45,459 nt of DNA from a virus (lineage: Duplodnaviria; Heunggongvirae; Uroviricota; Caudoviricetes): IMG/VR virus record IMGVR_UViG_2651869692_000003, one strand, 5' to 3'. Numbering within the stretch: position 1 is the first letter of the stretch; every line of letters starts with the position of its first letter. The position numbers were made by a program. Shown one piece after another: positions 18,001-21,000 of the stretch.

Positions 18001-21000
18001 ATAATTGTCTGGTTTTGTCTACTTCTTTTAATGCAGGTAGTAAAAGGTTTGTCATTTATCAATCAGCACAAGATAAGAATCTTCAGGTTGATATTGTAAG
18101 GACCAGAATTTAATTGGCTGCATAAATAATATTTTAAGTTGCAAGTTGGCTATTCGTAGGAATAGAACCTTAGGCATGCTGAATGCGTTTTCTGAACATT
18201 GTTTTATAAACTGTGTCTGCTTGCTGTTGTGATCCTGCTTTTAGTGATGGTGATGATGGATTTCACCAGCAGGATAATGTTGGTACTGACTGATGGCGCT
18301 CTGGTCTGCGGCATTGTGGTATTGCTGTGGCCGATGATGAAAGAACAGAATGAATAATTCTTGACTTTTTTGTTTACTGTTTATTAAAAAAACAACCGCA
18401 TGGTGAATCCTCCTTGGAGGGGCTAAATGATCGAGTTTTAAGGGCACGTAGCGAGTTCTGTTTGATCATTGCAGAACTTAGCGGGAGGCGCCATGCGTAC
18501 ATCACTAATGTTATTTCCTTCTATCATTTTCCTTGTGAGTTCTGGCTGCGCATGGCGCGGCCTTTTTTTTATGACCTGCCACTGGCAGATGGTCATCCTG
18601 TGATTTGATTCCGGTTCCGGCTTTTTAACTCTGTTCCTGTACACGGGAGAAATTCTATGTCGATTAATCGTTATGATATTGGTTACAAGAAGTACCACGT
18701 ATTGTGTTGAGATAGAAAGCCTGGTGCCAGAGGTAAATGCAGCAGCATAATAAAAAAGAGCCAGCGCAGAAGAGAACGGGTAAAAGAGTCTGCGCTGGCG
18801 TGGGGATATTCCCCGTGGAGAAATGATATGTAACACACATCGGGAACCTTTCTATATAAACATTATCATTATTGTCAATCATAACAGTCAGGTATTATGA
18901 CGTTTATGCATCAGGGCCATCAGGAATTAACTGGTGGCTTTTTATTGTTGTCAGCTTCCGGATAACGGGAGACGGGGTATGTACCAGATGGAAAAAATAA
19001 CAACAGGTGTGTCATACACCACGTCAGCGGTGGGGACGGGATACTGGCTACTGCAGTTGCTGGACAAAGTCTCCCCATCCCAGTGGGTGGCAATAGGCGT
19101 ATTGGGTAGCCTGGTGTTTGGCTTGCTGACGTATCTGACAAACCTTTATTTCAAGATTAAAGAAGATAAGCGTAAGGCTGCGAGAGGTGAATAATGTCGC
19201 CATCATTACGCAAGGCTGTTGCTGCTGCTATTGGTGGTGGGGCTGTTGCCATAGCGTCTGTGCTCATCACTGGTCCGAGTGGTGACGATGGCCTGGAAGG
19301 TGTCAGCTACATACCATACGAAGATATCGTTGGCGTATGGACTGTATGTCACGGACACACCGGAAAAGACATCATTCCCGGTAAAACGTATACCGAAGCA
19401 GAATGCAAAGCCCTCCTGAATAAAGACCTTGCCATGGTCGCCAGACAAATTAACCCGTACATCAAAGTCGATATACCGGAAACAACGCGCGGCGCTCTTT
19501 ACTCGGTTGTTTACAACGTGGGCGCTGGTAATTTCAGAACATCGACGCTTCTTCGCAAAATAAACCAGGGTGATATCAAAGGCGCATGTGACCAGCTACG
19601 TCGCTGGACATACGCTGGCGGTAAGCAATGGAAAGGCCTGATGACTCGTCGTGAGATTGAGCGTGAAGTCTGTTTGTGGGGGCAGCAATGAGCAGAGTAA
19701 CCGCGATTATCTCCGCTCTGATTATCTGCATCATCGTCTGCCTGTCATGGGCTGTTAATCATTACCGTGATAACGCCATCGCCTACAAAGAGCAGCGCGA
19801 CAAAAACGCCAGAGAGCTGAAGCAGGCGACCGCCACCATTACTGACATGCAGCAGCGCCAGCGTGCTGCTGATGTACTCGATGCTAAATACACGAAGGAG
19901 TTAGCCAATGCGAAAGCTGAAAATGATGCTCTTCGGCGTAAGCTTGATAATGGTGGTCGGGTGCTCGTCAAAGGAAAATGCCCTGTGCCAGCCTCAGCCA
20001 AAACCTCCAGCTCCTCCGGCATGGGCAATGAGGCCACCGTCGAACTCTCTTCAGTTGCTGGACGAAACGTTCTCGGTATCCGGGACGGAATTATCCGTGA
20101 CCAAACAGCACTGAGAACGCTTCAGGAGTACATCAGGACGCAATGCCTGAAATAAATTTTTTTGCAAATCACAAAGTCAATTTAATGAGCCTCGCGATGC
20201 GGGGCTTTTTTATGTCCGCAGTAAACGCGCATCTCACGCGCATATTAACGAGAGCCTTTCAGTAAGCGAGCCTGAGAAATGCCGTTATAGGTGGCGACCT
20301 CTCTCGGGCGGCTTTTCTGTGAGACAGGCTCACTTTCTAAAAGGTAAAGACGCTATGAATAATCATTCAGTTATTCCAGCCTTCGACTTCCGAGAAATGG
20401 TGCAAGCCAAAAACGGAGAGGTCGTTACCACATCCAGAAAAATTGCCAAGTACTTCGGCAAGCGACACGGTGATGTTCTCAGGAAAATCGAGCAGGTTAA
20501 GGCTGATTGCTCGCGTGAGTTTAGCCAACGCAATTTTGCGTCGGCTGATTATATCGATGAGCAGGGCAAGGTTCGCCCGATGTACAGCCTGACGAAAGAT
20601 GGCTGGATCATGGTTGTGATGGGGTTCACCGGGAAAGCTGCTGCGGCAATCAAGGAGAGCTATATCGCAGCATTCAACTGGATGGCAGAGCAACTGAGCC
20701 GCCGCATGGCAATTGGCGAAGAAATGCAGCACCGCTACGCCATCAAAGAAACACGCTCAAAGCTGAAAGGTACGATCGGCAGTCGGTTAATGAACGAACG
20801 GAAGAGAGAGAAGCGTGTCCTGGCTGTCGAGCATGAATACATTTTGCAGGTGACACAGCCTGAACTGCTGATTAATTGAAGATGTCATTACAAAGCCTAT
20901 CTACGGGTGGGCTTGATAATGGCTTATACCCTGCACGGGATAACTTAACTGATATCCCTTTTAACGGATAAAGGTATTCAGGCCAGACACATCATGCGCT

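Follow-up and report, generated by a model that had tools for sequence, protein, structure and literature searches.

In at least eight prophages of Escherichia coli O157:H7 Sakai, the interval from the late promoter to the lysis genes contains pairs of small RNAs (sRNAs) that bind Hfq, for a reason that is unclear (review PMC7873438). Hfq-bound RNAs have been mapped both in this enterohemorrhagic (EHEC) strain (Tree et al. 2014, PMC4104026) and in the enteropathogenic (EPEC) strain E2348/69 (Pearl Mizrahi et al. 2021, PMC8550237). Here we describe a locus of this kind in the virus record IMGVR_UViG_2651869692_000003, a lambdoid prophage sequence whose whole stretch of 45,459 nucleotides we call the window. 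The segment under study comprises 865 bp (18114-18978) between a membrane-protein gene and a pinholin gene. It is 99.5-99.7% identical to prophages Sp3 of Sakai and PP4 of E2348/69, with three mismatches to the former and four to the latter (Sakai coordinates minus 882,828 give window positions), and is found at a coverage of at least 80% in 563 of 5426 complete E. coli genomes.

The segment very probably serves as the cargo ("moron") slot of the prophage, located past the late promoter and ahead of the lysis genes, and is filled rather than empty, with two real, trans-acting sRNAs: PasD1 (EcOnc13) on the plus strand and EcOnc32 on the minus strand. An earlier note on this DNA had guessed at one sRNA; both RNAs have been detected by northern blotting and by Hfq cross-linking or RIL-seq, which ligates and sequences interacting RNAs, in strains of identical sequence, and these published data establish that both are real, associate with Hfq, and are recovered as chimeras with mRNAs of the host. 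The locus is thus already known, as PasD1/EcOnc13, EcOnc32, and the DUF3927 gene next to them are all on record. What we add are new readings of existing data, namely, the pairing of EcOnc32 with entC, its kinship to the sRNA Esr41, and a Fur-like site at its promoter. The residual interest of the locus lies in the unreported EcOnc32-entC link, which is well supported, with Fur input as a possibility. The features that bear on these points are the following.

18398-18570, plus strand: sRNA PasD1 (= EcOnc13), 173 nt, identical at 173 of 173 positions to E2348/69 NC_011601 1060260-1060432.

18361-18390, plus strand: likely PasD1 promoter, judged from the sequence, with a -35 element TTGACT (18361-18366) and an A/T-rich -10 region (18382-18390; TATTAA or TAAAAA).

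18536-18541, plus strand: published PasD seed UGUGAG, just upstream of the terminator and identical in the window.

18544-18570, plus strand: PasD1 intrinsic terminator, GGCUGCGC-AUG-GCGCGGCC followed by U8, from the terminator scan and fold.

18493-18603, plus strand: open reading frame (ORF) of 36 aa from an ATG at 18493, inside PasD1 with its stop past the terminator; not a gene.

~18750-18855, minus strand: Esr41-like sRNA EcOnc32, from identity to Sakai Sp3, the Hfq peak, the northern probe, and RIL-seq.

18855-18891, minus strand: EcOnc32 promoter candidates TTGACA (18878-18873)-N16-TATAGA and CTGACT (18891-18886)-N18-GATAAT (18867-18862), from the promoter scan.

18815-18830, minus strand: EcOnc32 seed CAUAUCAUUUCUCCAC with the anti-Shine-Dalgarno core UUUCUCC, from a predicted duplex with the ribosome-binding site and start codon of entC.

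18438-18836, minus strand: 132-aa ORF annotated by RefSeq (ECs_0817/E2348C_1013, hypothetical protein), almost certainly not a gene.

18657-18749, plus strand: deletion scar of a nanS-p/SASA-family sialate O-acetylesterase gene, from BLAST, translations, and the intact gene in phage 434 and prophage PP2 of E2348/69.

PasD1 is recorded for E2348/69 as a plus-strand RNA of 173 nt (1060260-1060432) with the entry "homologue EcOnc13" (Table S6, PMC8550237). In Sakai Sp3, EcOnc13 is a plus-strand RNA with an Hfq peak at 901332-901382 and a northern signal of ~187 nt (Tree et al. 2014, PMC4104026); the peak maps to 18504-18554 (+) of the window. The fold displays a structured 5' domain closed by GCAUGGUG/CGCCAUGC, a single-stranded 3' part bearing the seed, and the terminator, and the seed is complementary to the CUCACA motif of the RIL-seq targets of PasD (Pearl Mizrahi et al. 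2021, Fig. S5, Table S7; PMC8550237). The strong terminator that the earlier note had placed at 18544-18570 is upheld by both scan and fold (hairpin at 18544-18562; 8-bp stem with seven G-C pairs; 3-nt loop; T8 run to 18570), and it can be recognized as the 3' end of PasD1 because the published RNA maps to 18398-18570. The U.G pair of its stem is U-A in phage 434 and PasD2, and one hairpin position appears as U-A, A-U, or G-C across the PasD variants. Drawn from related loci, these variants form a modular family in which the 5' domain is constant and the 3' seed-terminator module is exchanged. Against the Rfam model of STnc100 (RF02076), PasD1 reaches 38.9 bits (E 2e-6) where the gathering score is 47, which makes it a relative rather than a member of that family; a structural relationship between PasD and STnc100 is also stated in a preprint (Zhu, Shabalina & Storz 2026). 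For comparing EcOnc32 with Esr41 and PasD with STnc100, MAFFT-based covariation tests were unusable because the alignments misplaced pairing partners and the families show almost no divergence; independent folds and alignment to the Rfam models took their place. The likely promoter of PasD1 comes immediately behind the stop codon of the DUF3927 gene, 8-11 nt upstream of the 5' end as published, and is kept in the diverged copy of phage Evi.

The short ORF inside PasD1 had been described earlier as a lipoprotein-like frame of 37 aa at 18492-18605, a description that fails on several counts beyond its limits and length. Its putative lipobox, V-S-S-G-C, is poor, with S at -3 where L, V, or I is expected, and so departs from the pattern [LVI][ASTVI][GAS]C. 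The frame is also unconserved: a 1-nt deletion shifts it after 14 codons in the PasD2-type relatives (phage 434, E2348/69 PP2), and it is absent from phage Evi.

EcOnc32 was detected in Sakai Sp3 as a minus-strand RNA with an Hfq peak at 901574-901662, a northern signal of ~112 nt, and a predicted terminator, and in Table S2 its area under the curve ranks second (Tree et al. 2014, PMC4104026). Over 18722-18978, which covers the RNA and its promoter, the window has no mismatch to Sp3; the Hfq peak maps to 18746-18834, and the northern probe matches 18811-18845 save for one 1-nt indel, because of which an exact search with the probe gave no match. Fragments named "E2348C_1013" in EPEC RIL-seq map to 18751-18810. 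The EPEC Hfq RIL-seq libraries contain ~808,000 EcOnc32 fragments, the level of the RNA changes by -2.9 log2 units in the EPEC hfq deletion (adjusted P of 1e-23), and it occupies the second (sRNA) position in 100% of its chimeric fragments under both growth conditions (Table S5). The RNA is laid out as a first stem-loop (SL1, 18841-18825), single-stranded AUUUCUCCAC, a second stem-loop (SL2, 18814-18802), and a terminator (hairpin at 18799-18760, U-run to ~18751) with an 11-bp stem, an 18-nt loop, and a following UCUUUUUU. The z-score of the fold is -6.1 to -7.4, and the 5' end is predicted to fall between ~18843 and 18856, giving a predicted length of 94-107 nt.

Comparison with relatives points to the preservation of this architecture. 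EcOnc32-type genes occur in 603 of the 5426 genomes and are almost clonal, save for a few diverged copies beside stx2. In independent minimum-free-energy folds, four EcOnc32 variants and Esr41 share SL1, the single-stranded UUUCUCC seed, SL2, and the terminator, and EcOnc32 matches the Rfam Esr41 model (RF02676) with 32.3 bits (E 1e-3; gathering score 102). Diverged copies lie between stx2B and the holin gene in a Shiga toxin 2 (Stx2) prophage of strain STEC306 (locus L010, 1501-1639) and in an Stx2i prophage (locus L011, 1501-1576). The Stx2i copy has lost the family fold (z -0.3) and is possibly decaying.

The name E2348C_1013 leads to a different explanation of the same signal, in which the 132-aa ORF is a real protein gene and Hfq binds its mRNA. 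The earlier note had seen no long ORF and took the segment to be apparently noncoding, and on this point the annotation disagrees with it, since RefSeq lists both this ORF (18438-18836, minus strand) and a 52-aa DUF3927 gene (18199-18357, plus strand). The ORF is annotated in hundreds of genomes, and 132 codons is long for a chance frame. However, it starts within EcOnc32, passes the terminator of that RNA and the deletion junction described below, and ends antisense to PasD1, crossing two terminators in all. Where the esterase gene is intact, as in PP2, the frame is a frameshifted fragment, and no Pfam or PHROG family matches it. Moreover, all reads from RIL-seq, from cross-linking, ligation, and sequencing of hybrids (CLASH), and from cDNA analysis after cross-linking (CRAC) fall in its first ~90 nt, upstream of the terminator. 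A protein gene here is therefore extremely improbable, and the ORF is almost certainly an annotation artifact.

The deletion junction itself raises the further question of whether the whole segment is debris. In the scar, the first ~25 nt of the esterase gene (MSINRYD...) are joined at 18681/18682 to its last ~68 nt (...YCVEIESLVPEVNAAA*) in a different frame, and ~1.75 kb of the gene is gone relative to phage 434, phage 2B8, and E2348/69 PP2. Homology to these three runs to 18681; from 18682 it resumes at 82-83% identity, covering the end of the esterase gene and the flank downstream of it. The PasD-type unit and the holin-side unit of phage 434 and PP2 are separated by ~1.9 kb, with PasA or PasC occupying the slot beside the holin; the convergent layout of the two sRNAs in the window is hence a product of the ~1.75-kb deletion. 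PasA and PasC were considered as homologues of EcOnc32 and rejected, their similarity being limited to the terminator and flank despite the shared slot. Separately, E2348/69 PP2 has a second promoter-terminator unit, on the minus strand, immediately past PasA and adjoining the stop codon of the esterase gene (locus L005, 3470-3580; TTGACA-N17-TGAAAA ... GCCAGCG...CGCUGGC U7), which resembles PasC and the terminator module of EcOnc32 and is probably the 3' end of the "minor 236-nt" form of PasA (Table S6).

One could accordingly regard the segment as what the esterase deletion left behind, with its terminator serving only to insulate the late operon and its RNAs as noise. The scar in the middle of the segment is genuine, the deletion did create the convergent dyad, and the PasD1 terminator is the first strong one past the late promoter, all of which fit such an explanation. 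Yet in two pathotypes both RNAs belong to the most abundant ligands of Hfq, the level of EcOnc32 depends on Hfq, and the seeds through which each joins host mRNAs in specific chimeras are defined. Their genes are nearly invariant in ~560-600 of the 5426 complete E. coli genomes while the flanking cargo varies, and the EcOnc32 architecture is kept in diverged variants. We thus consider it highly unlikely that the segment is mere debris and retain the reading of two functional sRNAs in a cargo slot.

As to the function of EcOnc32, several lines of evidence converge on entC, the first gene of enterobactin synthesis. The stretch CAUAUCAU-UUCUCCAC (18830-18815) is predicted to pair with GUGGAGGAUGAUAUG of entC, spanning its Shine-Dalgarno sequence and AUG, in a duplex of 15 bp with one bulge and an energy of -21.3 kcal/mol. 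Shuffled seeds reach -9.5 +/- 2.5 kcal/mol, and in two sets of shuffles (2000 and 1000) none was as good as EcOnc32. These values come from seed-restricted duplexes with shuffles, as full-length RNAduplex runs gave meaningless long-loop structures. In RNase E CLASH of EHEC, the sole high-ranking EcOnc32 hybrid is with ECs0632 (entC), seen in four reads with both orientations at a false discovery rate of 5e-6 (Waters et al. 2017, PMC5286369). In EPEC RIL-seq, the 5' untranslated region of entC is the most specific EcOnc32 partner, with 263 chimeras in three libraries, an odds ratio of 14, and a p value of 4e-165.

A possible input from iron is seen at the promoter, where the 19-mer AATAATGATAATGTTTATA (18873-18855) resembles a Fur box, agreeing with the consensus GATAATGATAATCATTATC at 15 of 19 positions on the minus strand and at 14 of 19 on the plus strand (18855-18873). 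It is the only match of at least 14/19 in the 45-kb window. A Fur-like match is kept at the same place in variant promoters, with 14/19 in the Stx2 prophage of STEC306 and 15/19 in the type-B variant (locus L009), even though the type-B promoter differs at many positions. The promoters of Esr41, PasA, and PasC gave no Fur-like site.

Taken together, these observations lead us to a tentative reading in which EcOnc32 would be a Fur-repressed, iron-responsive paralogue of Esr41 that covers the entC ribosome-binding site and throttles host enterobactin synthesis when iron is scarce. In the lysogen, PasD1 and EcOnc32 would each be made from their own promoter and act in trans on host mRNAs, PasD1 via its UGUGAG seed. 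The anti-Shine-Dalgarno seed of EcOnc32 would lower translation of entC, in parallel with the repression of cirA, chuA, and bfr by its relative Esr41, and the Fur-box-like site would cause the RNA to be induced under iron limitation. Both the repression of entC and the response to iron are predictions. A literature search found no statement of EcOnc32-entC repression or of Fur control of EcOnc32, and no published function for the RNA, which is absent from the main texts searched; that the EcOnc32-entC function has gone undescribed may be put down in part to the annotation of the RNA as the protein gene ECs_0817/E2348C_1013.

Several points weigh against our overall account of the segment and must be set beside it. 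The 5' end and promoter of EcOnc32 are ambiguous, and the predicted 94-107 nt fall short of the ~112 nt of the northern blot. The expression evidence comes from Sakai and E2348/69 and is linked to the window by identity. The CLASH support for the entC pairing consists of only four reads, and the most numerous RIL-seq partner is the start region of rpoS (537 chimeras; odds ratio of 2.8), which displayed no complementarity to the EcOnc32 seed in the duplex test. The Fur-box match has four mismatches and sits in A/T-rich promoter DNA, and 10% of the composition-preserving shuffles of the window give a match as good somewhere. The matches to the STnc100 and Esr41 models both lie under the Rfam gathering scores. 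Finally, the DUF3927 gene of the window has no recognizable Shine-Dalgarno sequence, which is present in phage Evi, and may be poorly translated.

EcOnc32 also displays a complementarity of another kind. Its 18-nt terminator loop (CUCUUUUACCCGUUCUCU, 18771-18788, minus strand) complements the pinholin leader GGAUAACGGG (18958-18978, plus strand) at and just upstream of its Shine-Dalgarno sequence. When PasD1 and EcOnc32 were compared with the mRNAs of the DUF3927 gene, the membrane-protein gene, S, and R, only this pairing of the loop with the S leader stood out, with -26 kcal/mol over a longer, loop-rich duplex and none of 60 shuffles as good. We nevertheless set it aside as probably due to chance, because the loop differs in type-C variants and the leader is invariant.

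The two sRNA genes lie among the following features.

Ending at 17117: lambda-type Q antiterminator gene.

~17160-17195, plus strand: lambda-type late promoter pR', with -35 TTGACT (17160-17165) and -10 GAAACT (17183-17188), aligning with lambda to the start of the transcribed region.

17355-18113, plus strand: gene for a 252-aa membrane protein (PHROG 1521, function not assigned).

18199-18357, plus strand: gene for a DUF3927/"TciB-like" small membrane protein of 52 aa, with a TTG start in RefSeq, from Pfam, PHROG, and RefSeq.

18913-18951, plus strand: second terminator-like hairpin (18913-18941), GCCAUCAG-GAAUUAA-CUGGUGGC followed by UUUUUAUUGUUGU, from scan and fold.

18979-19194, plus strand: pinholin gene, a phage-21-type class II holin with two starts (Met1, Met4), from Pfam PF04971 (112 bits) and RefSeq; a gene for a signal-arrest-release (SAR) endolysin and the spanin genes come after it.

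The 52-aa product of the DUF3927 gene is largely hydrophobic, with two predicted helices, and matches Pfam PF13064 over residues 7-50 (53 bits, E 3.4e-14; cut-off 25) and PHROG 1470, "TciB-like" (63 bits). The 36-aa hydrophobic ORF (18247-18357) of the earlier note is indeed present but represents only the C-terminal 36 codons of this protein. The gene is also annotated in phage 434, and the frame and the core DFTSRIM.VL.DG.LV.GIVV are preserved in the homologues of phage Evi and strain OkiPb01715, with conservative hydrophobic replacements and a variable tail; it can for this reason be regarded as a real gene family. Its start codon is uncertain, as no Shine-Dalgarno sequence precedes it. The name "TciB" comes from phage annotation only, where it stands for [quoted passage not shown], a role not known to have been tested.

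In phage Evi (locus L003, 2539-3134) and OkiPb01715 (locus L009, 1967-2559), the DUF3927 gene overlaps by 4 nt the stop of a TerB-family ("TciA") gene, and a gene for an STnc100-type sRNA comes next. This overlap looks like operon coupling, and judging from gene order, TerB, DUF3927, and STnc100/PasD look like one conserved cargo module. In the window, the position of TerB is taken by the 252-aa membrane protein, whose gene accompanies the DUF3927-PasD module in each of Sp3, PP2, PP4, and phage 434. The 252-aa protein is multipass and has no match to a Pfam family or in PADLOC, and its gene has the lowest local GC content (36%).

The earlier note had suggested a type I toxin-like peptide, and a rival explanation would take the hydrophobic ORF as such a toxin and one of the neighboring RNAs as its antitoxin. 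The peptide is short and very hydrophobic with its two predicted helices, it belongs to a family of no assigned function, and its gene adjoins that of an abundant sRNA, the DUF3927 and STnc100/PasD genes being adjacent in all relatives examined. However, the ORF so interpreted was a shortened reading of a conserved protein, the scan found no promoter-terminator pair antisense to it, and no antisense RNA overlaps it. PasD1 is encoded on the same strand and begins past the stop codon, and for neither PasD1 nor EcOnc32 did the pairing with the mRNA of DUF3927 exceed that with shuffled controls. In phage Evi and OkiPb01715 the gene overlaps the end of a TerB-family gene, as an operon partner typically would, and PADLOC gave no match for the protein. 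A toxin-antitoxin pair is therefore highly improbable here, and the two RNAs are better understood as trans-acting regulators of host mRNAs.

The transcriptional logic of the segment is best seen from pR', where a lambda-type late promoter is joined to a cargo module that is not of lambda (17160-17262, plus strand). The hairpin after pR' with its U7 run (AAACCCGCUGCCGAGUGGGUUU) is good in Sakai Sp3 and phage 434 and is disrupted in the window in exactly the way seen in strain MEI003 and E2348/69 PP4. Between pR' and the 252-aa membrane-protein gene no good terminator intervenes, and the terminator scan found none on the plus strand between pR' and 18544, so that with the loss of the hairpin the PasD1 terminator becomes the first strong plus-strand terminator after pR'. 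It may act as an insulator and may be the working tR' of the prophage. The suggestion that the segment holds the regulatory boundary of the late operon survives in this sense only, since pR' itself lies ~1 kb upstream. The second plus-strand terminator ends 28 nt before the pinholin start codon; the equivalent hairpin of PP2 and phage 434 keeps its stem via an A-U to G-C change and is annotated as a terminator in phage 434. Under the proposed mechanism, the plus-strand terminators would shield the lysis genes from pR', from any promoter of the membrane-protein gene, and from the PasD1 promoter, and after induction, Q-modified RNA polymerase from pR' would pass them. As a weaker addition to the EcOnc32-entC reading, read-through from pR' might feed the membrane-protein genes and PasD1 in lysogens of the lambda-Q-type carriers.

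Besides this second terminator (18913-18941), the earlier note had not listed the minus-strand terminator (18799-18752) or the minus-strand promoter TTGACA (18878-18873). Its description of the segment as AT-rich is correct in direction but overstated in degree: GC content is 42.5% against 50.1% for the window, at the 11th percentile among 865-bp windows. At gathering thresholds, Rfam gave no match in the segment, and the tRNA scan found none. The sole gathering-level Rfam match of the window is elsewhere, a full-length IS009 (RF02111) at 43855-44054 (plus strand; 205.6 bits, E 5e-50).

In a broader context, the locus is a textbook example of how the space between the late promoter and the lysis genes of prophages carries regulatory RNAs that rewire the host, and readers of raw sequence should expect such RNAs in this slot. 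Under the annotation ECs_0817/E2348C_1013, which hundreds of E. coli genomes carry, an sRNA is almost certainly hidden that ranks with the most abundant Hfq-bound ones of EHEC and EPEC. If the EcOnc32-entC link holds true, it would provide a second prophage RNA, after Esr41, in the control of iron acquisition by pathogenic E. coli, possibly under Fur control.

Among known systems, the closest to the plus-strand unit is PasD1/PasD2 of E2348/69, the EcOnc13 of Sakai: the 173 nt of PasD1, the seed, and the terminator are the same without any sequence difference, as is the position after the Q antiterminator, membrane-protein, and DUF3927 genes. The point that the window adds is that this lambda-Q-type prophage has no intact terminator hairpin between pR' and the PasD1 terminator. 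STnc100 (RF02076) is a prophage sRNA of Salmonella and E. coli. Its model aligns over the full length with the 5' domain of PasD1, the closing stem and the hairpins GAAUCC(C/U)CC and UUC(U/A)G...C(A/U)GAA being common to both, and phage Evi has a fuller STnc100-like copy in the same slot. PasD departs from STnc100 in its 3' module of seed and terminator and in an 8-nt deletion that removes the CCGGGAGGCACCCGG hairpin.

The AgvB/EcOnc06 and AsxR/EcOnc27 dyads of Stx and other lambdoid prophages offer a parallel in organization, as they occupy the same slot with convergent Hfq-binding RNAs that have their own promoters. However, there is no sequence similarity, and AgvB and AsxR sponge host sRNAs, whereas the partners of PasD1 and EcOnc32 are mainly mRNAs; neither the conserved 3' module of AgvB/AsxR nor HnrS (EcOnc10-12) is present in the window. 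The pR'-6S RNA-tR' unit of lambda provides another parallel, in which the constitutive late promoter leads to an intrinsic terminator that stops all but Q-modified polymerase. The distance from the start to tR' is 194 nt in lambda, where the RNA is a by-product; in the window, the first strong terminator after pR' comes ~1.37 kb downstream and is that of an sRNA that has a promoter of its own.

On the minus strand, EcOnc32 of Sakai Sp3 is the identical RNA with the identical promoter, on the same strand and between the same neighbors. The resemblance to Esr41 (RF02676; Sudo et al. 2014; Waters et al. 2017, PMC5286369) extends over the whole architecture, from a 5' hairpin GAUG...CAUC, through single-stranded (A)CAUUU(U)CUCCA(U/C)GGGG and a small GGGG...CCC hairpin, to a GCC(A/G)GC...GCUGGC terminator. 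Esr41 pairs with its CLASH targets through the homologous stretch, and these targets are also iron genes (cirA, chuA, bfr). The two RNAs differ in that EcOnc32 has a long terminator loop (18 nt) and resides beside the holin gene of a lambdoid prophage, not in the SpLE1 island, and in that its top partner is entC and its promoter bears the Fur-like site that is absent in Esr41.

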